A stretch of DNA of 64,000 nt from an uncultured Myxococcales bacterium (GCA_964454005.1 CAYVQE010000005.1:4404-68403); one strand, 5' to 3'. Positions 2,769 through 37,044 are shown, counted from the stretch's first letter. Notes: generated by a model from the letters alone, not told the origin. Numbers and translations are program-made.

Positions 2769-2800
2769 GCGCATGGCCGAGCGAGGAGCGAGGACGCACC

Positions 2801-3601: not shown

Positions 3602-3645
3602 CCCGAACAGCCCCGAGCACGGATCGGAGAACGGAGCGAGTGACG

Positions 3646-4299: not shown

Positions 4300-4326
4300 A
4301 GCACGACACGGCGGAAGGGCGAGCGG

Positions 4327-5742
4327 ATGGTTTTTCTTTCCAGTGCGGACATCGACGCCATCGACTACAGCGCGCGCGACCTGCTGTGGCGGGTAGGGGT
4401 GCGGATCGACGATCCTGCGACCTTGGATGCGCTGGAGCGGGACGGGGCGGCAGTCGACCGGGAGACCGGCCGGTCCCGCCTGACCCGGTCGTGGCTGGAC
4501 GACCGACTGGGCAAGGCCCCGGAGCGTTTCGTACTGCACGGTCGCGATCGGACACACGATCTACAGCTCGGCCAGGGCCGGGTGCACTTCGGCAACGGCG
4601 GCCGGGTGTTCCGGGTGCGTGACATCGACAGCGGCGAGTTCCGCCCCACCGGCATGCGCGACCTGGCGGCCATCGCCAGCCTGGTCGAGCATTTGGAGCA
4701 GATCGACTTCTTCATCATCCCCTGCCAGGCTGAAGACCTGGCGGCCGAGCAATACCACGCCAACGAGTTCTGGCTGGCCTGCAACCACACCGCCAAGCAC
4801 GTGATGGGCGGCTGCGGCGATCTGCGCGGTGTCGAGCAGATATGGCGACTGGGCGGCTTGTTGGCCGGCTCTGCGGAAGCCTTCGCCGCGGCGCCCTTCC
4901 TGTCGGTGATCACCAACACCGTCAGCCCGCTGATCTTCAACGCCGATGTGCTGCGCATCATGCGCTTCTGCTGCCAGAACGGCCTGCCGCTGACCTGTGC
5001 CCCGGCTCCGATCGCCGGGGCCACCGCCCCGGCCACATTGGCCGGAGCCCTGACGCAGCAGCACGCCGAATCGCTGGCCGCGGTGGCCATCGCCCAGGTC
5101 TTCCAGCCGGGCGCCCGCATCCTGTACGGCGCCGTGCTGTCGAGCATGGACCTGCGGCACATGGATTTCTGCCTGGGTGCGGCCGAGATGGCCATCATGA
5201 ACGCGGCCGCGGTGCAGCTGGCCAAACACAGCCGCCTGCCGATCTACGCCAGCGCCGGGGTGACCGACGCCAAGACTCCGGACGTGCAGGCCGGCATGGA
5301 AAAGGCCCTGTCGCAGCTGTTGGTGGCCCAGGCCGGCGGCGACGCCATCCACCTGGCGGCCGGAATGCTGGATTCCGGCAACAGCGTGGCCTACGAGCAG
5401 TACCTGATCGACGACGAGCTGATCGGCATGGTGCGGCGGTGTTTGGCCGGCGTGCGGGTCGACGAGCAGACGCTGGCCCAGGAGGTGATCGCCCGGGTCG
5501 GTCCGGGTGGCAACTACGTCACCGAGGACCACACGGTGGATCACATGTTCGATGAGTTCTTCTTCCCCCGGCTGGCGGTGCGCAGCAACTTCGACGTCTG
5601 GAACACGGGCGGCCGGCAGGGGATGGGAGACCGGGCCCGGCAGGTGGCCAGCGAGTTGCTCGAGCAGCACGCGGCGACGCTGCTGGCGGCCGAGCGACGC
5701 GCCGCGGTGGAGGCGGCTTTTCCGGGAATCGTCACCCTGTGA
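4327..5742 (+). CDS. MttB-superfamily substrate:corrinoid methyltransferase (non-pyrrolysine type)
   Basis: The 471-aa length and overall pattern fit the trimethylamine methyltransferase family, including the C-terminal VGPGGNYVTEDHT motif. The frame is uninterrupted, with no in-frame TAG. Confidence 0.8.
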   Translation: MVFLSSADIDAIDYSARDLLWRVGVRIDDPATLDALERDGAAVDRETGRSRLTRSWLDDRLGKAPERFVLHGRDRTHDLQLGQGRVHFGNGGRVFRVRDIDSGEFRPTGMRDLAAIASLVEHLEQIDFFIIPCQAEDLAAEQYHANEFWLACNHTAKHVMGGCGDLRGVEQIWRLGGLLAGSAEAFAAAPFLSVITNTVSPLIFNADVLRIMRFCCQNGLPLTCAPAPIAGATAPATLAGALTQQHAESLAAVAIAQVFQPGARILYGAVLSSMDLRHMDFCLGAAEMAIMNAAAVQLAKHSRLPIYASAGVTDAKTPDVQAGMEKALSQLLVAQAGGDAIHLAAGMLDSGNSVAYEQYLIDDELIGMVRRCLAGVRVDEQTLAQEVIARVGPGGNYVTEDHTVDHMFDEFFFPRLAVRSNFDVWNTGGRQGMGDRARQVASELLEQHAATLLAAERRAAVEAAFPGIVTL

Positions 5743-5767
5743 CGGCCCGGCGAGGGGTGCGCGAGCC

Positions 5768-6379
5768 ATGCCGGTCGAGCCCGAGCAACCGGAGTGCCGG
5801 CGGCTGATCGCCTGCGGGGTGTTCGTCCCGGCCCTGGAGAACCTGGGGCTCGACCGGCGCTGGCCCGGGCTGGAGCTGAAAGTGATGCCGGCCAGCCTGC
5901 ACATCCAGCCGACCCGCCTCTACGAGATGCTGGCCCAGGAATTGGCGCGCAGCGACTGCCCGCGGCCCCGGACCGGCCTGCTCTATGGCAGCTGCTTCCC
6001 CGGCATCGATGACTTCTGCCGCAAGCAGGGTTTGCGGCGGGTCAGCGGAGCCCACTGCTACGAGATGCTGCTCGGGCCACGGCGCTTTACCCGGCTGATG
6101 GACGAGACCGCCGGGACCTTTTTCGCCGAACGGGTGTTGCTGCAGAACTTCGAGCAGCACTGCGTCGAACCGTTGGAGCTCGACGATGCCGAGGTGCGCG
6201 CGGCCACCTTCGCCCACTACCGGCGCCTGATCTACATCCGCCAGCCGGACGACCCCGACCTCGGCCCCCGGGCCGCTGCGGTCGCTGATTTTCTGGGCTT
6301 GAGCCTCGGAGTGCTGGATGCGGATTACACCTACTTCGAGCACCTGGTCGACGACCTGGTGCGGGGAGGTGGAGGCTGA
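5768..6379 (+). CDS. DUF1638 domain protein
   Basis: ATG 5768 lies inside listed ORF 5507..6379. The pattern LIACGVF..LENL...LH..P..L...LLYGSC...HCYEMLLG is typical of DUF1638 proteins, which accompany corrinoid methyltransferase genes. Confidence 0.65.
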   Translation: MPVEPEQPECRRLIACGVFVPALENLGLDRRWPGLELKVMPASLHIQPTRLYEMLAQELARSDCPRPRTGLLYGSCFPGIDDFCRKQGLRRVSGAHCYEMLLGPRRFTRLMDETAGTFFAERVLLQNFEQHCVEPLELDDAEVRAATFAHYRRLIYIRQPDDPDLGPRAAAVADFLGLSLGVLDADYTYFEHLVDDLVRGGGG

Positions 6380-8316
6380 TGGCCCGACCCGAACGACCGA
6401 CTGCATTGGGGCTGCCGCGCTATGCGCCCGGGCCGCCGGCCGCCCGGCGGCCGCGCGATCGAACCGTGCTGGTCAATGTGCTGCCGGACGACATCTGGCT
6501 CGAGGCCCGGCGCGGGGACAACCTGCTCGACGTTTTGAAGAAGGGTGATGTGGACATCGATGCCGAATGCGGCGGCTTGGGCCAGTGCGGCAAGTGCAAG
6601 GTACGCATTCTGAGCTCCATCGACCTGCCGCCGGAGCAGTCGCGCGAGCACCTGAGCCGAAAGGAGATCGGCCAGGGCATCCGGCTGGCTTGCCACACCG
6701 TGCTGCAGGACGATCTGATCGTGTGGACCGGCGACCGCGAGCCCGAGTCGGAGTACGTCCAGATCCTGCAGACCGGGGCCCGGCCGCTGTTCCAGCTCGA
6801 GCCGCTGGTCGATCGCAAGCTGATCAACCTGCGGGTCGACTCGGCCGGCGGCGAACTGTCCTACATGGAACAGGTGCGCCTGGCCATGGGGCCGGTCGGC
6901 CGCCGGCTCGAGCCCTCGCTGTGGTGCCTGCGGTCGATCGTCGAGCGCATGCAGCAGGCGGAGTTTCGCGGCGCAGCGGTCTACCACGCGGATCGCTTGA
7001 TCGCCTGGCAGGCCTGGGAGGATCTGGAGCGCTACTACGGGCTGACTCTGGACCTGGGCACCAGCACGTTGGTGGGCAAGCTGGTCAACCTGCTCGACGG
7101 CACCGTGGTGGCCGCCATCTCGCGGCTGAACGGCCAGCTCCAGTACGGCGCGGACGTGATCAGCAGGCTGAAGTACATCAAGGAGAATTCCGACGGCCTG
7201 GAGCGGCTGCACACCATCATGCTGCGCGACATCAACCGCATCGTCCAGCGCCTGCTGGAGGTCGAGCATATCGACGCCGGGGATGTCTACGCAGCCGTGG
7301 TCGCCGGCAACACCACCATGCAGCACATCTTTCTGCGGGTCGATCCGACCAGCATCGCCGAGGTGCCCTTCGTGCCGGTGGTCAAGGAGGGGGTGATCGC
7401 CAGGGCGTCCGAGCTGGATCTGGGGGTGCACCCGGAGGCGCCGTGCCACGTGGTGCCGTCGCGCAGCGGCTACATCGGCGGCGACCTGATCGCCGTCATC
7501 CTGGCCTCTGGCGCAGCCGAGCAGAACGACGAGTTGGTGCTGGGGCTCGATCTGGGCACCAACGGTGAAATTTTTCTGGGCAACGCCGATCGCATCCTGA
7601 CCTGTTCGGCCGCCGCCGGGCCGGCCTTCGAGGGCGCCAACATCTCCCACGGGATGATCGCCCGCGGCGGCGCCATCGAGGCGGTGCTGAGCAGCGAGCA
7701 CAAGAGCACCTTCGTCTACCGCATCGTCGGCAACATCGAACCGCGCGGCCTGTGCGGCAGCGGCCTGGTGGATCTGGTCGCTTTGCTGCTGCACTGCGGT
7801 ATCATCGACCCCGAAGGCCTGATCGGCCATGTCGGCGACGAACGGCTGGCCGACCTCGACGCCCGGGTGGTCGAGCGCGCAGGCGCCCACGCCTTCATGG
7901 TGGCCCCGCCGGAAGAGGCCCACGGCGGCCGGGCCATCTTCTTGACCCAGCGCGACGTGCGCGAGCTGCAGCTGGCCAAGGCGGCCATCGCCGCCGGGGT
8001 GGAGTCGCTGCTGGAGGAGCTGGGCGTCGGCCCCGGCGACATCGACAAGGTCCTGCTGACCGGGGCCTTCGGCAACTACATCAACGCCCACAGCGCGCTG
8101 CGCATCGGGCTGCTGCCGGCGTTCGACCCGGGGGTCATCACCACCCTGGGCAACGCGGCCAGCACCGGGGCCAACATGATGCTGCTGTCCAAGATGCACT
8201 GGCGGCGGGCTGAGGAGCTGAGCGAGCGGATCGAGTACATCGCGCTCAGCGCGCGTCCGACCTTCATGCAGCGCTTCGTCGAACAGATGGACTTTCCGGA
8301 GGACAACCTGTGGTGA
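6379..8316 (+). CDS. Reductive activator of corrinoid protein (RACo/RamA-like; 2Fe-2S ferredoxin + ASKHA ATPase)
   Basis: The N-terminus has a plant-type ferredoxin motif (CGGLGQCGKCKV...ACHT). A large ASKHA-like body follows (LDLGTSTLVG, LDLGTNGEIF, AGPAFEG). The ATG overlaps the upstream stop (TGATG). Confidence 0.8.
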   Translation: MARPERPTALGLPRYAPGPPAARRPRDRTVLVNVLPDDIWLEARRGDNLLDVLKKGDVDIDAECGGLGQCGKCKVRILSSIDLPPEQSREHLSRKEIGQGIRLACHTVLQDDLIVWTGDREPESEYVQILQTGARPLFQLEPLVDRKLINLRVDSAGGELSYMEQVRLAMGPVGRRLEPSLWCLRSIVERMQQAEFRGAAVYHADRLIAWQAWEDLERYYGLTLDLGTSTLVGKLVNLLDGTVVAAISRLNGQLQYGADVISRLKYIKENSDGLERLHTIMLRDINRIVQRLLEVEHIDAGDVYAAVVAGNTTMQHIFLRVDPTSIAEVPFVPVVKEGVIARASELDLGVHPEAPCHVVPSRSGYIGGDLIAVILASGAAEQNDELVLGLDLGTNGEIFLGNADRILTCSAAAGPAFEGANISHGMIARGGAIEAVLSSEHKSTFVYRIVGNIEPRGLCGSGLVDLVALLLHCGIIDPEGLIGHVGDERLADLDARVVERAGAHAFMVAPPEEAHGGRAIFLTQRDVRELQLAKAAIAAGVESLLEELGVGPGDIDKVLLTGAFGNYINAHSALRIGLLPAFDPGVITTLGNAASTGANMMLLSKMHWRRAEELSERIEYIALSARPTFMQRFVEQMDFPEDNLW

Positions 8317-9941
8317 GCCGAGGACGGGACTGGGACGCCACCGTCGACCTGGTGGTGGTGGGTCTCGGCGCCGCCGGTACCTGCGCCGCCATCGAGGCGG
8401 CTGCGGCCGGGGCGCAGGTGTTGGCGGTGGATCGCTTCGACGGCGGCGGTGCGACCCGCCGCTCGGGCGGCGTCATCTATGCTGGGGGCGGCACCCGCTT
8501 GCAGCGCCGTCACGGCTTCGAAGACGACGTGCAGCGGATGCTGACCTACATCGAGGCCGAAGCCGGCGGCGTGGTCGACCGGGTGGTGCTGCGGGCCTTT
8601 TGCGAACGCAGCTGCGAGAACATCGATTGGCTAGAACGGCACGGGGTCGAGTTCGGCGAGGCATTCTATCCCGGAAAGGCCACCGAGCCGCCGGCCGGCG
8701 TGGGCCTGTACTACTCGGGCAACGAGTGGCAGCTCGAGCGCGACCGGCCGCCGCCGCGGGGACACGTGCCCGACGGGGGCGGACGCAACGGTCGGGTACT
8801 CTACGAGGCACTCAGCCGGGCCGCGACCGCGGCCGGGGTACGGATCCAGCGCTGGACGCGGGCGGTCGAGCTGGTGACCGATGAGAGCGGCGCTGTGGTC
8901 GGCGCCGTGCTCGAGGCCCAGCGGCCAAATCCGTTGCTGCGTGCAGCGCAGCGCGGTTTGTTGGCGGCAGCCGGCCTGCAGCGACGCCTGGGCCCGGCGC
9001 TGGCGCGGCTGGAGCGAAGCGGCGGGCGTCGCCAGCGGGTGCGCGCGCGCGGTGGGGTGGTGCTGGCCAGCGGCGGCTTCGTGTACTCGGCCGGGCGCAT
9101 GCGCCGGCGGGCGCCGGCCTTTGCCGGCTGCATGCCCCTGGGCACCCCGGGGGACGACGGCGCGGCCCTGCGGTTGGGCGCGGCGGTGGGCGCAGCCAAC
9201 GGCGAGCTGGACGCCTGCGCCGCGCTGCGTTTCATCAGCCCGCCCGAAGCATTCAGCCACGGGCTGTTGGTCGACTCCAGCGGCCGGCGTTTCTGCGACG
9301 AGAGCCGCTACGGCGCCAGCCTGGGCCGGGCCATCGCCGGGCGGCCCGGCGGTCGGGCCTGGCTGATCATCGACGCCGGGTTGCGGCGCCGGGTGCTGGA
9401 CGAGTTGGCCGCCGCCGCCAAGCCCTGGCGCCAATCGCCGACGGCCCTGCTCAGCGGCCGTAGCAACGCCCTGCTGTTCCTGCACCTGACCGGCCGCACC
9501 CAGCTGCATCTCAACCGGGTGCGGGCGCCGCATCCGGAGCGGCTGGCTCGCAAGCTGGGCCTGACGGCTGCGGCGCTGGCGCGAACCATCGAGCAGCACA
9601 ACCGGGCGCTGGCCGCCGGCCGGCCCGATGAGCGGGGCAAGCCCGATCGCTTCCGGGCGCCGATCACCGAGCCGCCCTTCGAGGCGTTGGCCTGCCACCT
9701 GGACCATCCGCTGCTGTTGACCCCGTGCTTCACGCTGGGCGGCCTGCGCACCGATCCGTTGACCGGGCGGGTGTTGGGCCGCCGCGATGGCCGGCCCATC
9801 GCCGGGCTCTACGGCGCTGGCCGGGCCGCGGTGGGGGTCTGCTCGCGCTCCTACGTCAGCGGCCTGTCGCTGGCCGACTGCGTGTTCAGCGGCCGCAACG
9901 CCGGCCGCCACGCAGCCGAGCGGGCCGCGTCCGGTCGCTGA
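8310..9941 (+). CDS. FAD-binding dehydrogenase (fumarate reductase/KstD-like flavoprotein family)
   Basis: The N-terminal dinucleotide fold reads DLVVVGLGAAGTCAAIEAAAAGAQVLAVDR. A GTG start overlaps the RACo stop. The C-terminus has GLYGAGR. Confidence 0.75.
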   Translation: MVSRGRDWDATVDLVVVGLGAAGTCAAIEAAAAGAQVLAVDRFDGGGATRRSGGVIYAGGGTRLQRRHGFEDDVQRMLTYIEAEAGGVVDRVVLRAFCERSCENIDWLERHGVEFGEAFYPGKATEPPAGVGLYYSGNEWQLERDRPPPRGHVPDGGGRNGRVLYEALSRAATAAGVRIQRWTRAVELVTDESGAVVGAVLEAQRPNPLLRAAQRGLLAAAGLQRRLGPALARLERSGGRRQRVRARGGVVLASGGFVYSAGRMRRRAPAFAGCMPLGTPGDDGAALRLGAAVGAANGELDACAALRFISPPEAFSHGLLVDSSGRRFCDESRYGASLGRAIAGRPGGRAWLIIDAGLRRRVLDELAAAAKPWRQSPTALLSGRSNALLFLHLTGRTQLHLNRVRAPHPERLARKLGLTAAALARTIEQHNRALAAGRPDERGKPDRFRAPITEPPFEALACHLDHPLLLTPCFTLGGLRTDPLTGRVLGRRDGRPIAGLYGAGRAAVGVCSRSYVSGLSLADCVFSGRNAGRHAAERAASGR

Positions 9942-15399: not shown

Positions 15400-15592
15400 G
15401 ATGTCCTTCCAGCCGCCGTCGGCCCGGGCGGCTGAGTCCGAATGTAGGCCAGCCCCGGCGGTGTGTAAACCCGGCAGGACACGAGCGGGGCGCTGTGGAC
15501 AGCCGCAGCGGCCGGCGCCTCGACCTGCCGCCGCTGCCCGAAATCCTGCCGCCCTGAAAAAGCGTTGTTCGACAGCAGCTTGGGCCCAAAAG

Positions 15593-16204
15593 TTAAAAAG
15601 TTGAAACCGTCCCCGAGGGGAAGCGGGCGTCGGTCTCGAGGGCGGTGGCCAGGCGGCGCTGGTACTCGGGGCGGGGGATCTCCTCGACGCCGAACTGGCG
15701 GAAGTGATCGTTGACGATGTACTGGATGTCGAACAGGACGAAGCCGCCGGCGCGCAGCAGCTCGACCAGGTGCACCAGGGCCACCTTGCTGGCGTCGCGC
15801 ATGCGGTGGAACATGCTCTCGCCGGCGAATAGGCCGCGGACGGCCACGCCGTAGGTGCCGCCGACCAGCTCGCCGGCGTGCCAGCACTCGACGGAGTGGG
15901 CTGCGCCCAGCCGGTGCAGCAGGGTGAAGGCGTCGATCAGCTCCGCTGAGATCCAGGTCTGCTCGCGTCCCGGCGCCGGTGCGGCGCAGGCCTGCATCAC
16001 CTCGCGGAAGGCGGTGTCGAGGCGCAGCTCGAAACGGCCCTCGCGAACCGTGCGCGCCAACCGCCGCGGCACGTGGAAGCGTTCGTCCAGCGGCAGCACC
16101 GCCCGCGGATCGCATTCGTACAGATCCACCCGGCCGGCCTCGTCGGCCATCGGAAACGCGCCCTGGCAGTAGGCGGCGATCAGGGTTTGCGGATCGAGTC
16201 TCAT
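15593..16204 (-). CDS. aat: Leucyl/phenylalanyl-tRNA--protein transferase
   Basis: Motifs seen are AYCQGAFPMA, WISAELIDAF, HSVECW, GESMFH and FVLFDIQ. ATG 16204 is preferred over the longer listed ORF. Confidence 0.9.
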   Translation of the reverse strand: MRLDPQTLIAAYCQGAFPMADEAGRVDLYECDPRAVLPLDERFHVPRRLARTVREGRFELRLDTAFREVMQACAAPAPGREQTWISAELIDAFTLLHRLGAAHSVECWHAGELVGGTYGVAVRGLFAGESMFHRMRDASKVALVHLVELLRAGGFVLFDIQYIVNDHFRQFGVEEIPRPEYQRRLATALETDARFPSGTVSTF

Positions 16205-16304
16205 TACCCAAGGCTCCACTGGGGCCCATTTAGCATGTGCCCCTGGGGCGGGTCGAGCGAAAGGGCAGGGTGGCCACAACGGAAGTTCCCAGGGGAACTT
16301 CCGT

Positions 16305-17636
16305 CTACAGGAGCCGGTAGCGGCGCAGCTTGCGGTGCAGGGTGGAGCGGTGGATGCCGAGCTCGGCGGCGGCCTTGGTGCGGTTGCCGGCGTGGCGTTC
16401 GAGCGCCTGGCGGATGGCCTCGGCCTCCATCTTCTCGAGCTCGCCCTGGGGCCCGCTGCCCTCGTCGGGCCGCGGCGCCTGGGCGATGACGTGTGGCGGC
16501 AGATCGCCGGTGGAGATCTCTTCGCCCTTGCACAGGATGAAGGCCCGCTCGATGATGTTCTCGAGTTCGCGGATGTTGCCCGGAAAGGAGTACGCCAGCA
16601 GCGCCGACAGCGCGTCGGTGGTGATGCCGGTGATCGGCCGGCCGGTGGTCAACCGGGTGCGGTCGATGAAGTGGCGCACCAGCAGCGGGATGTCCTCGCT
16701 GCGCTGGCGCAGCGGCGGCAGGCCGATCTGCAGCACGTTGAGCCGGTAGTACAGGTCCTCGCGGAACTCGCCGCGCTCGACCAGCGGTTCCAGAGGCTGG
16801 TTGGTGGCGGCCACGATGCGCACATCGGCCTGCACCGGCTCGTTGGAGCCGAGCGGCTCGTACTCGCGATCCTGCAGAAAGCGCAGCAGCTTGACCTGCA
16901 GCGACCTGGGCAGGTCGGCCACCTCGTCGATGAACAGGGTGCCGCCCTCGGCCTGGGCGATGCGACCCGGTTTGTCGCTGCGGGCGTCGGTGAACGCGCC
17001 GCGGCGGTAACCGAACAGCTCGGACTCCAGCAGGGTCTCGGGCAGGGCGGCGCAGTTGACCGGCACGAGGCGGCTGCGCCGCCGCGGGCCATGGTTGTGG
17101 ATGGCCTTGGCCACCAGCTCCTTGCCGGTGCCCGACGGACCGGTGATCAGCACCGAGCTGTCGGACTCGGCCGCCAGCGGCAAGATGTCGAAGATGCGGT
17201 GCATCTCGACGTTCTTGCTGATGATGTCGTCGAAGCGGTAGCTGCCTTCGAGCCGGCGGCGCAGGTGTTGCACCGAGGACAGATCGCTGAACACCTCGAC
17301 GCCGCCGAGCAGCTTGCCGCTCTTGGTCTCCAGCGGCGCGGTCGAGACCGAGATGGCCAGGTTGCGGCCCTCGCGGGTATGGATGGTCACCTCGCGCGAA
17401 TGCACCGCATCGCGCGAGTGGATGCTGCTCTTGAGCGGGCAATCGCTCTGGCACAGCTCGGTCTGGAAGATGTCCTGGCAGCGGCAGCCGAGCACCTCGG
17501 ACTCGCGGTAGCCGGTGATCTCCTCGGCGGCGCGGTTGAACGAGGTGATGCAGCCGGCCGGGTCCACGGTGAAGATGCCGTGGTTGACCACATCGAGCAC
17601 CAGCGGCAGAAAGCGGCTGTCCAGCCGTTGTCTCAT
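16305..17636 (-). CDS. Sigma-54-dependent transcriptional activator with N-terminal PAS domain
   Basis: A PAS domain (GIFTVD...[14 protein letters not shown]) is followed by an AAA+ domain with [21 protein letters not shown] (a GAFTGA variant) and NIRELEN. A Fis-type HTH ([18 protein letters not shown]) closes the protein. The listed ORF starts at TTG 17753; ATG 17636 is chosen here, and the start remains uncertain. Confidence 0.9.
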
Positions 17637-17790
17637 GGGGGCCAGTTTACCAGGCTGCCGCTCTGCCGGCCAGTGCGCGCCGGCGGTGGTCTGCGCATCG
17701 GCGCCGCCAGCGGCGGCGCCCGGATCGGCCTGTAGCTGCTCGTCGAACTCCAAGGGTCAGTCCTTCCCGGGCCGGCTGCCGGGCCCGTGC

Positions 17791-18348
17791 TCAGCCGACG
17801 TGGCGCATGCCCGCCGAATCGGCCAGCGAGGGAGCGCCCAGCGCTTCGTCCAGCCGGGCCGCCTCGGCCAGCAGCTGGTCGCAGGTCTCGAACTCGCCGC
17901 GCTCTTCGTAGCAGTCGATCATGTCCATCAGGATGTCGCGCCGGCTGCCCGCGTCATCGAGCCCCTCGGCCAGCTCCAGGCTGCGGCGGTAGTGGGCCAG
18001 CGCCCTGTCTTGCTTGCCCCAGGCGTAGTAGAGCTCGCCCAGCGCCGACTCGGCGATCAGCTCGCCGCGGGTGAAACCGCACTGCCGGGCCAGTTCACGG
18101 CCGTCGCGGAAGAACTTCAAGGCCACGTCCCAGATCCAGTTGCGGTAGACCTTGCCGATGTGGATCAGCACGAAGGCCTCGCGCTGCGGTGAACCCTCGT
18201 CGCGGGACGCGCGCAGCATCTGCCACAGCACCTCGAGCGCCTGGCCGTAGCGCTTCTGCCGGCACAGGTTGCGCGCCTCGAGCGCTTTGGGCATCAAGGC
18301 CCGCGGATCGGGCGCGATCGCCTCCGAAAGCTGTCGTTCCCAGTTCAT
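17791..18348 (-). CDS. TPR-like repeat protein
   Basis: The start MNWERQ (ATG 18348) is preceded by GAGGAGG. Helical repeats such as GELYYAWGKQDRALAHYRRSLELAE are present. Confidence 0.6.
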   Translation of the reverse strand: MNWERQLSEAIAPDPRALMPKALEARNLCRQKRYGQALEVLWQMLRASRDEGSPQREAFVLIHIGKVYRNWIWDVALKFFRDGRELARQCGFTRGELIAESALGELYYAWGKQDRALAHYRRSLELAEGLDDAGSRRDILMDMIDCYEERGEFETCDQLLAEAARLDEALGAPSLADSAGMRHVG

Positions 18349-18404
18349 CTCAACCTCCTCGGTCCCTTCGCCGTGCGGGATCGAATTGACCCAAGATCCG
18401 CGGC

Positions 18405-18722
18405 TCAGACGCAGCCCTGGGCCTTGCCCAGCCCGGCCAGTTTGGCCGCTCGTTTGCCAGGCTGTTTTTGGAACAGCGCGTGCAACTCGCGGAAGCTCTT
18501 GTTGCACTCGCGCGTCAGGATGTGGGCCATGGGCGGCACCTTGAACTTGTCGTAGTAGGCGCGGATGGTGCGCAGCACCGCCAAGTGCTCCTCGGTCAGC
18601 TCACCGATGCCATCGCGGTCGGCCAGGGCCTGGGCCACCTCGGGGCTCCACTGGGAGTAGTCGGCCAGGTGGCCGTCCTCGTCCAGCTCGACCTGGCGGT
18701 CGCCTACGGTCAGGGTCTCCAT
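18405..18722 (-). CDS. TusE/DsrC-family sulfur-relay protein (single C-terminal Cys)
   Basis: The 105-aa protein contains ELTEEHLAVLRTIRAYY and ends ...AAKLAGLGKAQGCV, with the conserved penultimate Cys. Confidence 0.85.
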   Translation of the reverse strand: METLTVGDRQVELDEDGHLADYSQWSPEVAQALADRDGIGELTEEHLAVLRTIRAYYDKFKVPPMAHILTRECNKSFRELHALFQKQPGKRAAKLAGLGKAQGCV

Positions 18723-18737
18723 GCTCCACCTCCCCCG

Positions 18738-19970
18738 TCAATCGAGAACCAGGGCGTTGGCCAGCAGCGCCCACAGGTGAGTCGGCTTCCAGTCCCGTTT
18801 GTACTCGGTGGCCAGGCCCTCGACAGCGTCGTGGCAGTTGACGCACGGGGTGCACACCAGCGCGGCGCCGGTGCGGTCGATCTGGTCGACCTTGACCTGG
18901 CCGTAGTAGTTGCGGGCTTGCTTGAAGCCCGAGATCAACGCTCCGCCGCCGCCGGCGCAGCAGTAGTTGTACTCGCGGTTGGGCCACATCTCGACGAAGT
19001 TCTCGCAGACCCGGCTGAGCACGTAGCGGCTGTCGTCCATGATATCGGCGAAGCCGTCCATGATCGCCTTGCGGCTGGCGTTGCACGGATCGTGCAGCGT
19101 AACCGGCTGCGGGTTGCGCGACGGGTCGACCTTGAGCCGGCCCTCGCGCAGCCACTTGGCGTAGAGGTTGACCTTGTGGACGACGTCGAACTTCGGCTCG
19201 ATGCCGAACTTCTTGTAGCCGGCCAGGGTGGCGTAGTAGCCATGGCCGCATTCGGTGTAGGCCATGGTCTTGATGCCCAGCTCCTCGACCCGGGCCACCT
19301 GCTGGCGCAGGGTGTACTCCCAGGTGTCCAGGTCGCCTGCGAACATGGCGTAGTTGGTGCCCTCCCACCAGATGCTGGGCATGGTCCAGCTGACCCCGGC
19401 GGCGTGGAAGACCTTGTAGATGCACTGTAGATCCAGCGGGTAGTACTGCGGCAGCTTGGAGTTGATGGTGATGAAGTAGTCGGCCCCCTGCTTGTCGATC
19501 GGGAAATCCAGATCCGGGATGTCGTCCTGGACCTCCTCCTTCATCCAATCCACCGTCTCCAGCCAGTCCTCGGTGCTCAGCTCCATATTGTTGCCCACGC
19601 TGCGGTGCAGATCGGCCGTCTTCTGGCTGCCGCCGGGCACCTGGTCGCGCGGCCGCATCGAGCGGGCGCGGGTGATCAGCGAGCCGATGCGCACGCCCAT
19701 GGGGCAGATGTAGGAGCAGCGGTCGCAGCCGGTGCACTGGTAGATGGCGTCGGCGTCGATCAGCTCCTGCTCGCGGCCGAACAGCACCAGCCGCACCGCC
19801 CGGCGCGGATCGAAATCCGAGTAGCCGTGCAGCGGGCAGACGCTCAGGCACTTGCCGCAGGTCAGGCAGACGTCCAGATCGGCTTTCCAGGCCGACTCCT
19901 CCAGCAACGCCTTGCGCAGCGGCAGATCGCGGTTTTGCTCCAGCTGAATGGCCTCTGCTGTCTCAGCCAT
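18738..19970 (-). CDS. HdrD/DsrK-like heterodisulfide-reductase-type Fe-S protein (2x[4Fe-4S] + CCG domains)
   Basis: It carries the ferredoxin motifs CLTCGKCLSVCP and CTGCDRCSYICP. Cys-rich CCG-type segments follow (HDPCNASR, NYCCAGGGG, CTPCVNCH). No obvious TM helices are present. Confidence 0.8.
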   Translation of the reverse strand: MAETAEAIQLEQNRDLPLRKALLEESAWKADLDVCLTCGKCLSVCPLHGYSDFDPRRAVRLVLFGREQELIDADAIYQCTGCDRCSYICPMGVRIGSLITRARSMRPRDQVPGGSQKTADLHRSVGNNMELSTEDWLETVDWMKEEVQDDIPDLDFPIDKQGADYFITINSKLPQYYPLDLQCIYKVFHAAGVSWTMPSIWWEGTNYAMFAGDLDTWEYTLRQQVARVEELGIKTMAYTECGHGYYATLAGYKKFGIEPKFDVVHKVNLYAKWLREGRLKVDPSRNPQPVTLHDPCNASRKAIMDGFADIMDDSRYVLSRVCENFVEMWPNREYNYCCAGGGGALISGFKQARNYYGQVKVDQIDRTGAALVCTPCVNCHDAVEGLATEYKRDWKPTHLWALLANALVLD

Positions 19971-21978
19971 TGCTCGCCTCCTGCCGGGCGCCTTGGCCGG
20001 CGCCCTGCTCGATGGTGCCTTCGGGGAAGGCCGCCACCGCTTTTTCGAGTAGGTGGACCAGCCGGTGCGGCTCGTTGGCCGCCAGGCTGTGGAAACAGAT
20101 GCGCTGGCCGCCCAGGCCGCTCGCCTCGAGCCACTCGTGCAGCATGCCGACCCGCCGCCGGGTGATGTCCGAACCCCACAGCGAGCGACAGTTGTCGTGA
20201 TGGCAGCCCAGCACCACCGCGCCGCGGGCGCCCTGCTCGATGGCGTCGAGCAGGATGCGGTCGCTGATCAGACCGGCGCAGGGCACGTCGATCAGCAGCA
20301 GATCGCGGGGCAGCGAAAGGCCCTGGCGCATCGCGCTGTCGGCCGCGGCCACCGCCGATTGGTGGCAGGCGAAGCCGATGATGGGTGCCCGGCCCGCCAG
20401 GGTGCGGGTGGCCTCGGCCAACACGGCGTGCATCTGGCCGAAGCGCATGCTGCCGTGCTCCAGCGCCAGGCCGGGGCAGACGGAGGTGCAGATGCCGCAC
20501 TGCCAGCAGGCGGAGTCGAGCACCTGCATGCGGTGCTGGGTGTCCTCGATGGGCTCGATGGCGCCGTGGGGGCAGACCCGCACGCAGTTGAGACAGGCCG
20601 CGCAGTGGCCCTTGTCGTAGGCCACCTTCTCCAGCGGGAGCCGCAGGGGAGCATCGGGCAGCTGGGCGGCCAGCTCGGCCACCACGGCCTGGGCTTCCAG
20701 CCGCGCCTCGGCCGGATCGCATTCGTCGTGGCAGCCGCCGACGAAGAACACGCCCCGGCGCGCCGAGCCGACCGGACGGTGGCGCACGTTGCCGCTCTGC
20801 AAAAAGCCCTGTCGGTCCAGCGGCTGCTGCAGCAGGTGGGCCAGCTGGCGGTGGGCCGCCGAGGGCCGCACCGGCTCGGGCAGCACCAGCAGATCGGCAG
20901 CGATTTCGATGGGCTTGTCCGGCAGCACGCTGTCGGTGACCCGCACCAGCAGGCTCCGTCCGCCGACCTCCACCTCGGGTTGCTGCGTGGTGCGCAGAAA
21001 GGTCACCCCGGCCAGCCGGGCCTCGTCGTAGCGCAGCTGGCCCTGCTCGCCGTAGACCGGCATCTGGCGGGCCAGCACGTAGACCGGGCTGCCCCGGCGC
21101 GCCTGATGGAGGGCCAGCTCGACCGCCGCCAAGCCGGCACAACGCCGGTCGTGGTTCTGGTGATCGAGCCAGATCACCACCGGCCCATCGGGCGCGTCAC
21201 CGCTGTTCAGCCGATCGCTGTAGCTGCGCAGAGTGATGACCTTGCCGCTGTCGGCCAGCTCGGGCGCCAGATGCAGCGGCAGACTCTCGGCGTCGACCGC
21301 CACGACCAACGCCCCGGCGCACAGCACGTGCCGGCCGGCCTCGTCCGCGGTCCACAGCTTGAAGTTGCCCAGCCCGCCCTCGACGCGATCGATGCGCGCG
21401 TCGTCGATCACGGTGATGGCCGGGTGATCGAGCACCGGCTTCAGCTCGTCCTCCCCCAGCTCGTAGTAACAGCCGCTGGGCGGCGCGGTACGCAACAGGG
21501 TGACCGGATGGCCGGCGGCGGCCAGGGCGCGGGCGCTGGCCATGGCACCGTGGTTGCCGCCCAGCACCACCACCCGCCGCTCGGCAGCCACCTCGCCGAT
21601 TTGCAGCGGTGCGGCTTGCCGGGCCCGGGCCACGGCCATTCGAACCAGGCGCGCGGCGTGGGCGGATCCGTCTTCGTCCACCGACCGTATGGTGGCGCAG
21701 GTGATGGGCACGGCAGCATCGCCGTTGTCGCCACCCACCCATTCGGGCAAACGGTCGGCCGATCGGGCCGAGGCGCAGACGACAACCCGCGACAGCGATT
21801 GCTCGCGACACAGTTCGCCGATGCGGCTGGCCGCCGAGGCGTCGCTCCAGCTCGGTGCGCTGAACAGCTGCAGGTCTTCGGCGCCATTCAGCTCCGCCGC
21901 CAGCGACTCCTCGCTCAGCAGTTCGGCCAGAACCGCATCGCCGGTCTCCAAAAAAACGCCGATCTTCTCTCCACTCAT
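19963..21978 (-). CDS. QmoB-like HdrA-type flavoprotein fused to ferredoxin and MvhD domains
   Basis: A dinucleotide fold (RRVVVLGGNHGAMASA) is followed by CAACLNCVRVCP and CWQCGICTSVCP. The C-terminal MvhD/FlpD-like domain reads IGFACHQSA...VPCAG...LGCHHDNC. Confidence 0.8.
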   Translation of the reverse strand: MSGEKIGVFLETGDAVLAELLSEESLAAELNGAEDLQLFSAPSWSDASAASRIGELCREQSLSRVVVCASARSADRLPEWVGGDNGDAAVPITCATIRSVDEDGSAHAARLVRMAVARARQAAPLQIGEVAAERRVVVLGGNHGAMASARALAAAGHPVTLLRTAPPSGCYYELGEDELKPVLDHPAITVIDDARIDRVEGGLGNFKLWTADEAGRHVLCAGALVVAVDAESLPLHLAPELADSGKVITLRSYSDRLNSGDAPDGPVVIWLDHQNHDRRCAGLAAVELALHQARRGSPVYVLARQMPVYGEQGQLRYDEARLAGVTFLRTTQQPEVEVGGRSLLVRVTDSVLPDKPIEIAADLLVLPEPVRPSAAHRQLAHLLQQPLDRQGFLQSGNVRHRPVGSARRGVFFVGGCHDECDPAEARLEAQAVVAELAAQLPDAPLRLPLEKVAYDKGHCAACLNCVRVCPHGAIEPIEDTQHRMQVLDSACWQCGICTSVCPGLALEHGSMRFGQMHAVLAEATRTLAGRAPIIGFACHQSAVAAADSAMRQGLSLPRDLLLIDVPCAGLISDRILLDAIEQGARGAVVLGCHHDNCRSLWGSDITRRRVGMLHEWLEASGLGGQRICFHSLAANEPHRLVHLLEKAVAAFPEGTIEQGAGQGARQEASNG

Positions 21979-21982
21979 GGCT

Positions 21983-23140
21983 TTATGCTCCCGCGGCGGT
22001 CCGCTGGCTGGACTCGGTCCGTTGTGAGGGTCCGCGTTCGGCCTCGTCGCGGTTCAGGTGACCGGCGGCCATGGCGGCCGCCGCCAGGCCCGTGCGCCGC
22101 GAGCCCTGGATGTCGGTCGGGCCGGCGCAGGCGCCGGCCATGAACAAGCCGGGCTGCTCGGTCATGGTGGCCCCGTCCGGACTGTGGGCCAGAAAGCCGA
22201 ATTCGTTCTGCGCCAGCCCGAAGCGTTCGGCCAACTCGCCCTGCGCCGCACCGGGGGCCAATCCGGTGGCCAGCACGATGCGGTCGAAGGCGAAGGCCTC
22301 GGCCTTTTCGGCCCCCTGGCGGATGGCGTGCACCACCGCCTTGTCCGCCAGCTCCTCGGTGCCGTAGCACACCTCGGCCGGTACGCCCTGGATGAACTCG
22401 ACCCGATCGCGCGCCTGGCGGTAGAAGGTCTCGAACTCCTTGCTCATGATCTGCAGGTCGATGTAGAAGACCGTCACCTCGGTCTCGGGGCGCAGATGCA
22501 GCAGCCGGTTGACCAGCCGGATGGTGGCCCGGCAGCAGAACTGCGAGCAGTACTCGCGGCCCAGCTGGCGGTCGCGCGAACCCACGCACTGGATGAAGGC
22601 CAGCCGCGGCTTCTCGATGGCGGCGGGGAGGAACACCTCCAGGTCATCCTGGGCCAGGGCGTGATCCAGCTCGCGGATGGTGCGGACCTGATCGAAGCGA
22701 CCGTAGCCCAACAGCAGATCCGCGGACGGATCGTAGACCGAGAACCCGGTGGCCAGAACGGTGGCCGCGGCCCGTAGCTGGCGGGGTGCGTCCAGCCCGG
22801 GGGCCGCCGCGTCATCTTCGTTCTGCGCTTCGTCCGCGACCGGCTCCAGCGCCAGGGTGCGGCCCGCGGCATCGACGTCCACCTGCGCCACCTGGGCGTT
22901 GGCCAGTACCTCGATGTGCGGATGCGCCAGGGTGCGCCGGATCAGATCCTGGACCATGCAGGCCGAGCAGCGGGCGCACTCGTCGGTGGCCATGCAGGCC
23001 CACTCTGCCGCGTGGCCTCCCAGGCGGCGCGAGCGCTCGATGAGGGTGACGTCGATTCCCCGGTCGGCCAGGGCGGTGGCGGCGGTCAGCCCGGCCACTC
23101 CGCCGCCGACGATCGCGACGTGCTTGTGGCTATCCTCCAT
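21983..23140 (-). CDS. QmoA/HdrA-like FAD- and Fe-S-containing oxidoreductase
   Basis: Motifs seen are the FAD fold VAIVGGGVAGLTAA, the HdrA-type cluster signature CVGSRDRQLGREYCSQFCC and the N-terminal Cys motif CMATDECARCSAC. Confidence 0.8.
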   Translation of the reverse strand: MEDSHKHVAIVGGGVAGLTAATALADRGIDVTLIERSRRLGGHAAEWACMATDECARCSACMVQDLIRRTLAHPHIEVLANAQVAQVDVDAAGRTLALEPVADEAQNEDDAAAPGLDAPRQLRAAATVLATGFSVYDPSADLLLGYGRFDQVRTIRELDHALAQDDLEVFLPAAIEKPRLAFIQCVGSRDRQLGREYCSQFCCRATIRLVNRLLHLRPETEVTVFYIDLQIMSKEFETFYRQARDRVEFIQGVPAEVCYGTEELADKAVVHAIRQGAEKAEAFAFDRIVLATGLAPGAAQGELAERFGLAQNEFGFLAHSPDGATMTEQPGLFMAGACAGPTDIQGSRRTGLAAAAMAAGHLNRDEAERGPSQRTESSQRTAAGA

Positions 23141-23147
23141 CTCGAAC

Positions 23148-23567
23148 TCACCTCTCCCTTTCCGGGCTCGATCCGGGATCGGCCCAGCGTCGGTAGTATT
23201 CGCAATCCTCGCAGCGCCCGCGCGGAGCGCTGGCGTCCGGGCGCATGCCCATCAGCTTGAAGCAGTCGCGCACGCCCAGGTACTTCACCAGGCAGCCCGC
23301 GCAGGCGGCCGGCGGCTGGCCGTCGGCCCCGGCGTGGAACTGCCAGCACATCGGGCGCACATCGGCCGGGTCGACCAGCAGGTCGGTGTTCATGCCCTGG
23401 GCGTGCATGAAGGAGCGCAGATCGCGGCGCAGGATGCGGTACTGGCCGCCGGCGGTGCGTTGCGCGGGCAGCCGACCGGCCTTGATCCAGTTGACGATGG
23501 TGTCCGCGGTCACCAGGCAGCAGCGGGCGGCCTGGCCGGTGGTCATGGCCAGTCGCTGGTCAGTCAT
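23148..23567 (-). CDS. Excisionase/MerR-type HTH DNA-binding protein with Cys-rich C-terminal domain
   Basis: The start MTDQRL (ATG 23567) lies inside listed ORF 23148..23792. The HTH reads TTGQAARCCLVTADTIVNWIKAGRLPAQRTAGGQYRI. The C-terminus carries Cys residues in the pattern CW...CAGC...C...CEDC. Confidence 0.65.
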   Translation of the reverse strand: MTDQRLAMTTGQAARCCLVTADTIVNWIKAGRLPAQRTAGGQYRILRRDLRSFMHAQGMNTDLLVDPADVRPMCWQFHAGADGQPPAACAGCLVKYLGVRDCFKLMGMRPDASAPRGRCEDCEYYRRWADPGSSPERER

Positions 23568-23651
23568 GATCGACCGGGCTGGCGCTTGCTTCGCGCTTTT
23601 TTCGATTTTTCCACATTCCGTGCATTCGCCCTTTTCCGGAAATCCATACAG

Positions 23652-23666
23652 GCAAGGCCTGTGCCC
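23652..23666 (-). promoter_or_regulatory. Predicted sigma-54 (-24/-12) promoter of the HTH-Hdr/Qmo-like operon
   Basis: The reverse strand reads GGGCAC-AGGCC-TTGC. This matches GGCAC-N5-TTGC with correct GG/GC spacing, and it lies about 85 nt upstream of ATG 23567. Confidence 0.5.
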
Positions 23667-23756
23667 AGTGGCCAGATCGGCCTGGAGACAGCATAACGTT
23701 CTGAAATAAAGATAAATTAACCTTTGAGCGGACATCGGACAATGTGGCGCAAGTGT

Positions 23757-23790
23757 CGCAACAGTCCTCACTGTTGCGCTACAGTGTAGC
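23757..23790. promoter_or_regulatory. Adjacent perfect palindromes (candidate activator binding sites or terminator hairpin)
   Basis: CGCAACAGT-cctc-ACTGTTGCG (23757-23778) abuts GCTACA-G-TGTAGC (23778-23790). They sit about 100 bp upstream of the sigma-54 element and about 80-110 bp downstream of the convergently oriented... same-strand gene ending at 23869. Confidence 0.4.
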
Positions 23791-23868
23791 ACAACAAGAC
23801 ACTCAGGATAGGCAAAATCCGGAAAAAATGGGTCTATAATTAGGACTGCGCGATCGGGGGCAGCGGCT

Positions 23869-25212
23869 TCAGATCAGCAGCCGACAGGCCCAGACCGCGG
23901 CCAGGACGCCGGTCAGATCGGCGATCAGGCAGGCCGGCACCGTGTGGCGGGTACGGCGGATGCCGATCACGCCGAAGTAGAGCGCCAGCACGTAGAAGGT
24001 GGTCTCGGTCGAGCCCTGCATGGTGCTGACGATCTGGCCGATCAACGAATCGGGCCCGTGGACCTGCATGATCTCGGCAGCCATGCCGAAGGCGCCCTTG
24101 CCGGACAGCGGTCGCATCAGGGCCATCGGCAGGGTCTCGGCCGGCATGCCCACCAGGCTGGTGGCCGGCTGCAGGCCGTCGACCAGCAGTCCGAGGGCGC
24201 CCGAGGCGCGCAGCATACCGATGCCCACCATCAGCACGATGAAGTAGGGCACGAAGCGCACCACGAACTGGAAGGCCTCGCGGCCGCCCTCGACCACCGC
24301 GTCGAAGACCTTGACGCCGCGGATCAAGCCGTAGAGCACGAAGCCGGCGATCAGCAACGCCAGCGGCCACTGGGTGATGGCCGTGCCCAGGGCCTCGGCC
24401 CAGCCCTGGTCCTGGCCGCCGGGGCCGGGCCGGCCGGCCTGGAGGAACAGGGCATAGCCGATGGCGGCCACCGCGCCGATCGCCAGCAGCCAGCCGGCCA
24501 GCCGCACCCAGGTCGATGGCCGCTCCGGCTGGGCGTCGAACAGCGCCTGGGCCTCGCTGATGTCGAGCCCGTCGTCGGCCGCGGCCTCGGCCGCGCCCTC
24601 GGCCGGGGTGTTCTCGGCGGCCTCCTTGATGCGAAACACGGGCAGGCGTTGCAGCAGCTTGGCCGTCAGGATGGCGACACAGGTCGACAGTCCGGTGCTT
24701 ACGATCGAGGCCAGGATGAACGAGCCCGGCTCCTCGGAGCCGAGCGAGGAGCGCAGCGCGATCATGCCGGTGGGCAGCAGGGCCAGGTTGGAGGTGTTGA
24801 TGGCCAGAAACAGCACCATCGAGTTGCTGGCCACCCCCTTGTGCCGGTTGAGCTTGTCCAGCTCGACCATGGCCTTGAGGCCGAAGGGGGTAGCCGCGTT
24901 GCCCAGCCCCAGCATGTTGGCCACGATGTTCATGATCATCATGCTCATGGCCGGGTGCTCCGGGGGCACGTCCGGGAACAGGCGCCGGGTCAGCGGGCGC
25001 AGCAGCCGGGCGAAACGATTGAGCAATCCGCCGCGCTGCAGCACCCGCATCAGGCCCAGCCAGAAGGCCATCACCCCCACCAGGCCCACCACCAGCATGA
25101 CCGCCGTCTTGGCCGCCTCGGTCGAGGCGGTCGAGACCTCCCCGAGCCGGCCGGTCAGCGCCCCGCAGATCAGGGCGCCGACGATCATCAGGATCCAGAT
25201 GGCGTTGAGCAT
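23869..25212 (-). CDS. Nucleoside-recognition (Gate) domain membrane protein, SpmA/SpmB-like fusion
   Basis: The start MLNAIWILMIVGALI (ATG 25212) matches a SpmA-type N-terminus. The protein is polytopic and hydrophobic, and its second half is SpmB-like (RPLSGKGAFGM...TTFYVLALYFG). Confidence 0.75.
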   Translation of the reverse strand: MLNAIWILMIVGALICGALTGRLGEVSTASTEAAKTAVMLVVGLVGVMAFWLGLMRVLQRGGLLNRFARLLRPLTRRLFPDVPPEHPAMSMMIMNIVANMLGLGNAATPFGLKAMVELDKLNRHKGVASNSMVLFLAINTSNLALLPTGMIALRSSLGSEEPGSFILASIVSTGLSTCVAILTAKLLQRLPVFRIKEAAENTPAEGAAEAAADDGLDISEAQALFDAQPERPSTWVRLAGWLLAIGAVAAIGYALFLQAGRPGPGGQDQGWAEALGTAITQWPLALLIAGFVLYGLIRGVKVFDAVVEGGREAFQFVVRFVPYFIVLMVGIGMLRASGALGLLVDGLQPATSLVGMPAETLPMALMRPLSGKGAFGMAAEIMQVHGPDSLIGQIVSTMQGSTETTFYVLALYFGVIGIRRTRHTVPACLIADLTGVLAAVWACRLLI

Positions 25213-25379
25213 ATGCGCTGCCGTCCCCACCGCCGCCTCGCCGGCGGCGGCCATGGGCCATGAATGCCCCTGGGTGGCACATCGTGCCCGCCAAGTCAAG
25301 AATTCGCGGCGTGTTTTGGTTCTCCGGGGCCTGGATTTGAATCCGCGGCCGCGAAGCGGTAGCCTGACCGGGGGTGACG

Positions 25380-36810: not shown

Positions 36811-37044
36811 GACGTTCTCCATGGGACTGGATTGCGGTTCTTCCATGTTTTCGCAATCATTCATACCGTCCGTGCGATTCGATCGTCAACCGAGAGCAAG
36901 GGTCCATACGAGTAGTTGCCGGTGGGCCGTCGAGATCATTTGCCGGTGCATAGACTCCAACGCTGCCCGACCTTTTTGGTTGCGGCGGCGGTTCTCGCCG
37001 TGCCATGCAGAGGGGCGATTCCACGAACCGAGGAGGCCGACAGC

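Follow-up and report, generated by a model that had tools for sequence, protein, structure and literature searches.

We report a block of seven minus-strand genes (positions 16305 to 23567) in a stretch of DNA of 64,000 nucleotides (nt) from an uncultured Myxococcales bacterium (GCA_964454005.1, CAYVQE010000005.1:4404-68403), the whole of which was analyzed and is referred to below as the window. Taking together the genes present, their motifs and homology, the conserved synteny, and the architecture of the promoter, we infer that this is a sigma-54-dependent operon encoding a soluble iron-sulfur flavoprotein complex of the heterodisulfide reductase (Hdr) type, in which an HdrABC-MvhD set is laid out over three polypeptides and a one-cysteine DsrC-like protein is most likely the dedicated substrate. 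We assign this reading, taken as a whole, a probability of roughly 0.55. The strongest functional lead offered by the sequences points to one-carbon (C1) metabolism rather than sulfate reduction.

All seven open reading frames (ORFs), which a first-pass annotation of this DNA had listed as a single same-strand set, were found at these positions, and each of the domains assigned to them (HdrA, MvhD, CCG, and the others) was borne out by Pfam and NCBIfam models. The core of the block encodes, in the order of transcription, a QmoA-like subunit (385 amino acids [aa]; positions 21983 to 23140), which is an HdrA-core flavoprotein; a QmoB-like subunit (671 aa; 19963 to 21978), in which an HdrA-like region is joined to a two-[4Fe-4S] ferredoxin domain and a FlpD/MvhD domain (E = 8e-29); an HdrD-like subunit (410 aa; 18738 to 19970) with two CxxCxxCxxxCP motifs and one CCG domain; and a DsrC/TusE-family protein (105 aa; 18405 to 18722; PF04358, E = 1e-27; TIGR03342, 90 bits against a cutoff of 53.5). 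The ORFs abut or overlap from a helix-turn-helix (HTH) gene at the head of the block through the DsrC-like gene. The G+C content of the window is ~69%, and that of third codon positions (GC3) is 0.83 to 0.93 in six of the seven ORFs; the HTH ORF as first extended, to position 23792, failed the GC3 filter and is supported instead by a conserved start. None of the four core proteins contains a transmembrane-like segment. No apr, sat, or dsrAB domains were detected among the ~55 window ORFs scanned, and the related loci annotated with Pfam (L001, L003, and L019 to L021) showed no aprBA or sat linkage, so that the claimed lack of apr, sat, and dsr neighbors held in both settings.

For comparison, ~35 related loci, some of them duplicates, were assembled from scans of one genome per species, Joint Genome Institute (JGI) metagenomes, and contig look-ups of single homologs. 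They come mostly from uncultured Myxococcota, with a few labeled as Planctomycetota or "Nealsonbacteria." All of the loci fetched share the order of the QmoA-like, QmoB-like, and HdrD-like genes, with the DsrC-like gene adjoining them in most, so that the arrangement cannot be put down to chance. The closest relative, L004 (contig CAZWFN010000076.1 of CAZWFN01), comes from a metagenome-assembled genome (MAG) labeled "uncultured Myxococcales" and shows full synteny with 93% protein identity; in the other relatives, the identity of the flavoproteins is at most 56%. An exhaustive HMMER search turned up the complete QmoB-like architecture in only ~15 to 20 representative clusters (at 50% identity).

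These loci fall into distinguishable subtypes. In 13 distinct loci (L001, L005, L007, L008, L010, L018, L021, L030, L031, L032, L038, L042, and L043), the genes metV-(mvhD)-metF directly follow the DsrC-like gene, mvhD being a separate gene only in some of them; the MetV proteins of these loci are recognized by PF12225 and carry an NGPCGG motif. The subtype of the window, which is shared with L004, L013, L037, and L039, comprises the HTH gene, the core, the DsrC-like gene, a TPR gene, and an activator gene and is devoid of metVF. In a neighbor-joining tree of the QmoB-like and HdrD-like proteins, which is midpoint rooted and only indicative, the MetVF-linked loci form one derived clade. No common partner was found among the scanned neighbors of the MetVF-less loci L012 and L013, which include histidine kinases, ParA/NBP35-type proteins, an aldehyde:ferredoxin oxidoreductase, and an Fdh-like fusion. 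A conserved gene pair encoding DUF1847 (a Cys-rich protein of ~300 aa) and an unannotated 175-aa protein accompanies the MetVF-linked subtype; it lies between the activator and the qmoA-like gene in L005, L007, L009, L020, L031 to L033, and L040, and L021 and L030 have one gene each.

The HdrD-like protein is the most conserved member across the related loci (72 to 81% identity versus ~50% for the flavoproteins). Its residues 30 to 240 are 56% identical to an HdrC protein, and its residues 263 to 410 are 69% identical to a 151-aa single-CCG HdrB protein, both encoded in locus L024 in the order folD, acsD, cooS, acsB, acsC, acsE, hdrC, hdrB, hdrA (1,015 aa), mvhD, metV, metF; this is a classical Wood-Ljungdahl operon of the Moorella-type organization on a metagenome contig that is not from Moorella. 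Its N-terminal half is also 59% identical to a split HdrC of the Flx-Hdr type (P0134 of locus L027, where the order is HdrA, MvhD, two ferredoxin-like proteins, an NAD-binding FlxA-like protein, HdrC, and HdrB), and HdrD proteins of Firmicutes reach only ~39% identity to the HdrD-like protein. The CCG part has the single pattern C296-x40-CC-x34-CxxC and is predicted to provide a thiol/disulfide-active site. The protein is soluble (maximum Kyte-Doolittle hydropathy, 0.97), and the qmoC model reaches it with just 37 bits, over the ferredoxin part only, against a cutoff of 300. Thus, the proposal that a soluble fused HdrCB-type protein stands in place of QmoC agrees with what we found. DsrK, HmcF, and TmcB, its best NCBIfam matches, were rejected as identities for the CCG protein, all of them scoring far under their cutoffs (151 versus 400, 267 versus 750, and 228 versus 735 bits, respectively), and the operon contains none of the DsrM, Hmc, or Tmc genes.

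The two flavoprotein-related subunits correspond to two halves of a long HdrA. The QmoA-like subunit aligns with the first half of the 1,015-aa HdrA of L024 and L022, minus the ferredoxin insert, and in this respect matches the QmoA-type architecture. It has a flavin adenine dinucleotide (FAD) motif, GGGVAG, and two four-cysteine motifs, WACMATxxCxxCSAC and CVGSRD...YCSQFCC; these motifs, and likewise CVGSRDRQLGREYCSQFCC, are invariant or nearly so in 114 homologs. The QmoB-like subunit aligns with residues 464 to 1001 of the long HdrA of L024, plus MvhD. Its ferredoxin cysteines (C459 to C469 and C491 to C501) are followed by those of the MvhD/FlpD-like domain (C538, C567, C592, and C597), which matches MvhD in the Protein Data Bank (PDB) with an E value of 8e-13. 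Throughout the related loci, a conserved GGNHAA (residues 139 to 145) takes the place of GGGVAG in this subunit, the GD-type motif is replaced by GGCHDECDP, and the N-terminal CNCG and CVGSR...CSxxCC motifs are lost; with both the FAD and the HdrA iron-sulfur motifs gone, a second flavin is unlikely. At positions that bind FAD in HdrA, there are new invariant cysteines (C170, C280, C416, and C420), which might together make up a new metal site where the flavin pocket had been. Hence, the resemblance of this pair to QmoAB, as first annotated, stands at the level of architecture but not of sequence, where the relatives are bacterial Hdr proteins and the FAD motifs of the QmoB-like member are degenerate. 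With the HdrD-like protein equivalent to HdrC plus HdrB and the other two subunits equivalent to the halves of HdrA plus MvhD, the module amounts to a repackaged bacterial HdrABC-MvhD. Of the features of such a set, an HdrA with FAD and CxGxRD...CSxxCC motifs, HdrC and HdrB, and an MvhD-like subunit are present. No adjacent input/output module of the MetVF or FlxABC kind was found in the window.

Three observations from other loci concern the same protein families. In L023 (7137 to 11227), a protein 60% identical to the HdrD-like subunit of the window follows two FAD proteins (of the DAO and FAD_binding_2 families), not HdrA-like genes, indicating that the CCG subunit is reused with other flavoproteins. 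In L025 (10001 to 13738), a different second soluble module consists of an 839-aa HdrA-ferredoxin-MvhD fusion and then a 401-aa HdrD-like protein; it is on the same 5.98-Mb Myxococcota chromosome as L015, and these genomes therefore carry several Hdr-like modules. The MvhD gene of L024 (14464 to 14928) has an in-frame TGA at a cluster-ligand cysteine of its relatives (VAG*LEGECHF versus VAGCNLGDCHF), which is a probable selenocysteine codon.

Apart from one distant clade, the DsrC-like gene directly follows the HdrD-like gene in the related loci, across ~17 distinct lineages spanning roughly 50% identity. The protein keeps the flexible C-terminal arm and the penultimate cysteine of the family (Cys104, CysA) and has Ala93 at the CysB position, which is aligned as cysteine in all five of the best-matching solved DsrC chains (2xsj_C, 2v4j_C, 1sau_A, 1yx3_A, and 3or1_C; E = 2e-20 to 1e-15). 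Likewise, CysB is absent (Ala or Gly) in 11 of 11 related DsrC-like proteins aligned, in which the arm and Cys104 are invariant and Cys73 is not conserved. The absence of CysB excludes the classical trisulfide and intramolecular disulfide chemistry of DsrC, and Cys104 could carry a persulfide or enter into a mixed or an intermolecular disulfide. This bears on the notion that the DsrC-family protein is the thiol/persulfide substrate of the CCG protein; it survives in the form of a persulfide or mixed disulfide on Cys104 but not in its classical disulfide or trisulfide form.

Sigma-54 control of the operon, also predicted in the first-pass annotation, is well supported by the sequence upstream of its first gene and by the activator encoded at its far end. 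A -24/-12 element (GGGCAC-N5-TTGCC; 23651 to 23666, minus strand) lies 84 nt upstream of the start of the HTH gene and is identical in L004; L013, L037, and L039 have CGGCAC-N5-TTGC(T) or ATGCT 102 to 108 nt upstream of the HTH gene, so that all five loci of the HTH/TPR subtype have such an element 84 to 108 nt before it. Equivalent sites precede the first operon gene in L001, L003, L005, L007, L008, L009, L014, and L017. With a background rate of 1.4e-4 per nt, their occurrence in 10 or more of 12 independent loci is not expected by chance (P[≥10/12] ≈ 1.6e-13). A cluster of inverted repeats (23739 to 23796, not assigned to a strand), 73 to 130 nt upstream of the -24 element, includes CGCAACAGT/ACTGTTGCG with a 4-nt spacer; TGT(C/T)GC...GCGACA palindromes occupy the matching relative position in L004, L013, L037, and L039, and we regard the repeats as candidate activator-binding upstream sites. 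A scan of 15500 to 24200 for sigma-70 promoters and terminators gave nothing above shuffled expectation, and rpoN was not found in the window.

The activator itself (16305 to 17753, minus strand; Sigma54_activat, E = 6e-66; HTH_8) is a sigma-54 enhancer-binding protein with PAS, AAA+, and Fis-type HTH domains, whose true start is probably the ATG at 17636. Its AAA+ domain carries the GAFTDA loop, and orthologous PAS/sigma-54 activators adjoin the core in nearly all loci. A C-x8-C-x3-C motif in the PAS domain (C92, C101, and C105) is invariant in 16 of 16 aligned sequences (that of the window and 15 from related loci among L001 to L021), which suggests a metal, Fe-S, or redox sensor. The first gene of the operon encodes a 139-aa HTH_17/excisionase-type protein (23148 to 23567, minus strand; HTH_17, E = 8e-10) with a Cys-rich C terminus. 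Its start at M76 (position 23567) is conserved with L013, as are six C-terminal cysteines (the equivalents of C149, C164, C167, C177, C194, and C197). This gene is present only in the HTH/TPR subtype (the window, L004, L013, L037, and L039), and its product is a candidate metal- or redox-sensing local regulator. The 185-aa TPR protein (17791 to 18348, minus strand; TPR_12, E = 4e-12) is encoded by an ORF that extends to 18507, with the conserved start M54 at 18348; start and sequence are conserved in L004 and L013, and the gene is also present in L037 and L039. It is specific to this subtype and may possibly modulate the activator.

Put together, these components suggest the following scheme. 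The QmoA-like subunit, as an HdrA core with FAD and two iron-sulfur motifs, would hold the only candidate bifurcating flavin; the ferredoxin and MvhD-like [2Fe-2S] domains of the QmoB-like subunit would serve as wires to ferredoxin and a partner enzyme; and the HdrD-like subunit (HdrC plus single-CCG HdrB) would supply the thiol/disulfide-active site. The CCG cluster would be the place where a persulfide or mixed disulfide of Cys104, presented on the flexible arm of the DsrC-like protein, is reduced or arises. On the model of Mvh-Hdr and Flx-Hdr, the flavin would link ferredoxin with this thiol couple and with a mid-potential two-electron couple reached via the MvhD-like domain. In the derived clade, the partner docked to MvhD is predicted to be the operon-encoded MetV-(MvhD)-MetF, acting on methylene-/methyl-tetrahydrofolate (THF), and the partner of the HTH/TPR subtype of the window would be encoded outside the operon. 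The PAS(Cys)-sigma-54 activator would switch on the operon at the -24/-12 promoter, with the Cys-rich HTH and TPR proteins as putative accessory regulators. The flavin-based bifurcation that had been raised as a possibility thus keeps the intact HdrA-type flavoprotein that it needs, in the QmoA-like subunit, but not a likely second flavin.

Several points weigh against this scheme. Complex formation, a substrate role for the DsrC-like protein, electron bifurcation, and the direction in which electrons flow are predictions from sequence. In a distant clade (L003 and L014 to L017), neither the DsrC-like gene nor MetVF adjoins the core, which presumably works there without a DsrC-like protein or uses one encoded elsewhere. 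No metF or metV gene is present in the window, and, with the MetVF-linked loci being derived, the MetFV link may not apply to it. We know of no established redox cycle of a single-cysteine DsrC with a CCG protein. Finally, one related protein is named QmoB by JGI, and, although the nearest sequence relatives are Hdr proteins, the comparison included no bona fide QmoA or QmoB sequence.

The alternatives differ mainly in the partner that they give to this core. One of them, a more specific version of the explanation preferred here, makes the block the Hdr part of an Hdr-MvhD-dependent methylene-THF reductase in this genome too, with metVF encoded elsewhere; it would either oxidize methyl-THF from the nearby methyltransferase system or reduce methylene-THF as part of a Wood-Ljungdahl pathway. 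The placement of metV-(mvhD)-metF after the DsrC-like gene in 13 related loci, the identity of the HdrD-like protein (56%/69%) to HdrC/HdrB of an acs-hdrCBA-mvhD-metVF operon, and the methyl-corrinoid/methyl-THF system at 1033 to 8316 in the window all speak for it. We hold it to be a tentative possibility, as MetF and MetV are missing from the 64 kb, the HTH/TPR subtype in four or five lineages is without metVF within 8 to 10 kb, the tree suggests that the MetVF linkage is derived, the same HdrCB lineage serves Flx-type complexes as well, and the methyltransferase cluster, encoded on the opposite strand, is 8 kb away from the closest module gene and separated from it by housekeeping genes. 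An oxidative system of the sHdr kind, in which the single-cysteine DsrC-like protein delivers persulfide sulfane sulfur to the CCG site for oxidation, with the electrons passing to the flavin, appears very unlikely. The QmoA-like subunit aligns from end to end with the short Hyphomicrobium sHdrA (6tjr; E = 2.6e-33), and one-cysteine DsrC/TusE-family proteins typically carry persulfide, as is established for TusE. However, methanogen HdrA cores in the PDB match the QmoA-like subunit better (E = 1e-46), the HdrD-like protein is closest to reductive bacterial HdrCB, and, compared with the sHdr set (hdrC1B1A-hyp-hdrC2B2 plus LbpA), the window has just one HdrCB equivalent, with no second HdrC2B2 pair, Hyp subunit, lipoate-binding (LbpA/GcvH-like), or lipoate-maturation domains. 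It is more improbable still that the DsrC-like protein is a regulatory or TusE-type sulfur-relay rider (e.g., for tRNA thiolation) and that the CCG site acts on a low-molecular-weight disulfide. The distant clade with a three-gene core and no adjacent DsrC-like gene fits that idea, as does the TusE-like cysteine pattern, but the position after the HdrD-like gene is maintained across the ~17 lineages, and the TusE equivalog model NF008562 gives 57 bits against a cutoff of 191. Moreover, the protein is closer to bona fide DsrC than to 7syb, a single chain deposited as "sulfurtransferase" (E = 1e-11), and the window scans revealed neither tusBCD or mnmA nor DsrE/F/H-type domains.

A role in sulfur-compound respiration would follow if the module were a Qmo analog of the QmoAB-HdrD type, feeding an adenosine 5'-phosphosulfate (APS) reductase encoded elsewhere, in either sulfate reduction or sulfur oxidation. 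This we consider unlikely. Apart from the QmoA/QmoB-like architecture and the homolog named QmoB, the occurrence of L001 and L008 near Hmc-like and DsrMK-like genes is in its favor; against it, the QmoA-like relatives are named HdrA or HdrA2 in their sources and never QmoA, the closest relatives of the HdrD-like protein are HdrCB of MetFV- and Flx-type complexes, and the QmoB-like subunit has no FAD motifs, whereas Qmo reportedly carries two FAD. Also in favor are the QmoAB-HdrD arrangements reported in putative sulfate reducers (PMC10504309) and a full sat/apr/qmo/dsr set reported in one Myxococcota genome (bioRxiv 10.1101/2021.07.06.451402). However, the QmoAB-HdrD type of the former study is described together with AprAB, and no aprBA or sat genes adjoin the module in the window or in the Pfam-annotated loci. 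The case for the HdrABC-MvhD-type complex with its DsrC-like substrate also has a practical side, as such genes can be labeled QmoB and then read as evidence of sulfate reduction in Myxococcota MAGs, which makes for an annotation trap.

Elsewhere in the window, a methyl-corrinoid/C1 cluster is encoded on the opposite strand to the block (1033 to 8316, plus strand). It includes a Met_synt_B12-like activation domain protein, a zinc alcohol dehydrogenase, a B12-binding corrinoid protein, DUF1638, RACo, a methyl-THF:corrinoid methyltransferase (297 bits against a cutoff of 259), and an MttB-family methyltransferase that falls under the trimethylamine equivalog cutoff and is therefore probably a non-pyrrolysine quaternary-amine enzyme. 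By its gene content, the cluster should produce methyl-THF. The FAD_binding_2 protein encoded right after it (8310 to 9941) was considered as AprA and is instead a PRK07121-type FAD protein (570 bits). The gene directly upstream of the block (23869 to 25299, minus strand) encodes a membrane protein that has two nucleoside-recognition (Gate) domains and is kept only in L004; as the sigma-54 promoter sits between this gene and the operon, it is probably outside the unit. Between 34000 and 36900, the G+C content dips locally to 0.60, from ~0.69, and a 501-aa ankyrin-repeat protein is encoded there (35359 to 36864, minus strand); this region may have been acquired horizontally.

A farther-reaching form of the scheme favored here would make the one-cysteine DsrC-like protein the physiological thiol/persulfide cosubstrate of a bifurcating bacterial Hdr-MvhD complex and, in the MetVF-linked relatives, the second redox partner sought for Hdr-dependent methylene-THF reductases, with a new Fe-S site made of the four invariant cysteines standing in for FAD in the QmoB-like subunit. 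C1 (methyl-THF) metabolism would then be tied to protein-bound sulfur redox chemistry outside the classical sulfate reducers. We put this forward as a speculation whose odds are poor. Bacterial HdrABC-type complexes are widespread in anaerobes, and their physiological disulfide substrate is mostly unknown; the present module would offer a compact four-protein system for biochemistry.

Comparison with known systems places the module closest to bacterial Hdr complexes while setting it apart from each of them. The DsrC-like protein shares with the DsrC/TusE family (PF04358 and TIGR03342) the fold family, the arm ...AGL(P/G)KxxGC(V/T/A), and the penultimate CysA. It differs from bona fide DsrC in the replacement of CysB by Ala or Gly and from TusE in falling under the equivalog cutoff and in having no Tus partners nearby. 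QmoABC and its QmoAB-HdrD/HdrBC variants likewise have two HdrA-related subunits, the second with ferredoxin and MvhD-like domains, and the variants have a soluble HdrD or HdrBC in place of QmoC, as here. In contrast to QmoABC, there is no heme b membrane subunit and no aprBA/sat linkage in the loci examined; the degenerate FAD motifs of the QmoB-like subunit are a further difference from Qmo, as is the inclusion of a DsrC-like gene and a sigma-54 activator in the unit.

The module had been described as an uncharacterized one in a nonclassical host. As to its particular makeup, this is upheld: our literature searches found no published description of an arrangement of QmoAB, HdrD, DsrC, and MetVF, nor of the combination of a split and fused Hdr set, an FAD-less second half, a single-cysteine DsrC-like protein, a sigma-54 regulon, and MetVF linkage. 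As to the parts and the host, it needs qualification, because comparative genomics has already noted QmoAB-HdrD arrangements, as well as Qmo-like genes in organisms devoid of Apr or Dsr, leaving open what they do (PMC10504309), and Myxococcota that are anaerobic and have genes for sulfate reduction and the Wood-Ljungdahl pathway are on record (bioRxiv 10.1101/2021.07.06.451402).

In the FlxABCD-HdrABC system of Desulfovibrio vulgaris, too, a bacterial HdrABC that is soluble is combined with an MvhD-like subunit, FlxD. DsrC is its proposed substrate via flavin-based bifurcation, and a direct interaction is reported in the studies that PMC10553843 cites (Ramos et al. 2015; Ferreira et al. 2023). 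Unlike Flx-Hdr, the module described here has no FlxA, FlxB, or FlxC genes, its subunits are fused and split in another manner, and its DsrC partner is an operon-encoded protein with a single cysteine in place of two. The MetFV-HdrABC-MvhD complex of Moorella thermoacetica (the "6S type") comprises the same cofactor modules, namely, an HdrA-type flavoprotein, HdrC, HdrB (CCG), and MvhD. Relative to it, the long HdrA is split here, MvhD is fused to the QmoB-like subunit, HdrC and HdrB are fused to each other, the second half of HdrA is without FAD motifs, and a dedicated gene for a single-cysteine DsrC-like protein is added; metVF is missing from operons of the window subtype and present in those of the 13 related loci. 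The second electron acceptor of the Moorella complex is described as unidentified in the summaries of Mock et al. (2014) given in PMC5861303 and PMC8515935. By its position beside the CCG subunit, and often directly before MetVF, the DsrC-like protein becomes a concrete candidate for the missing partner of complexes of the Moorella type.

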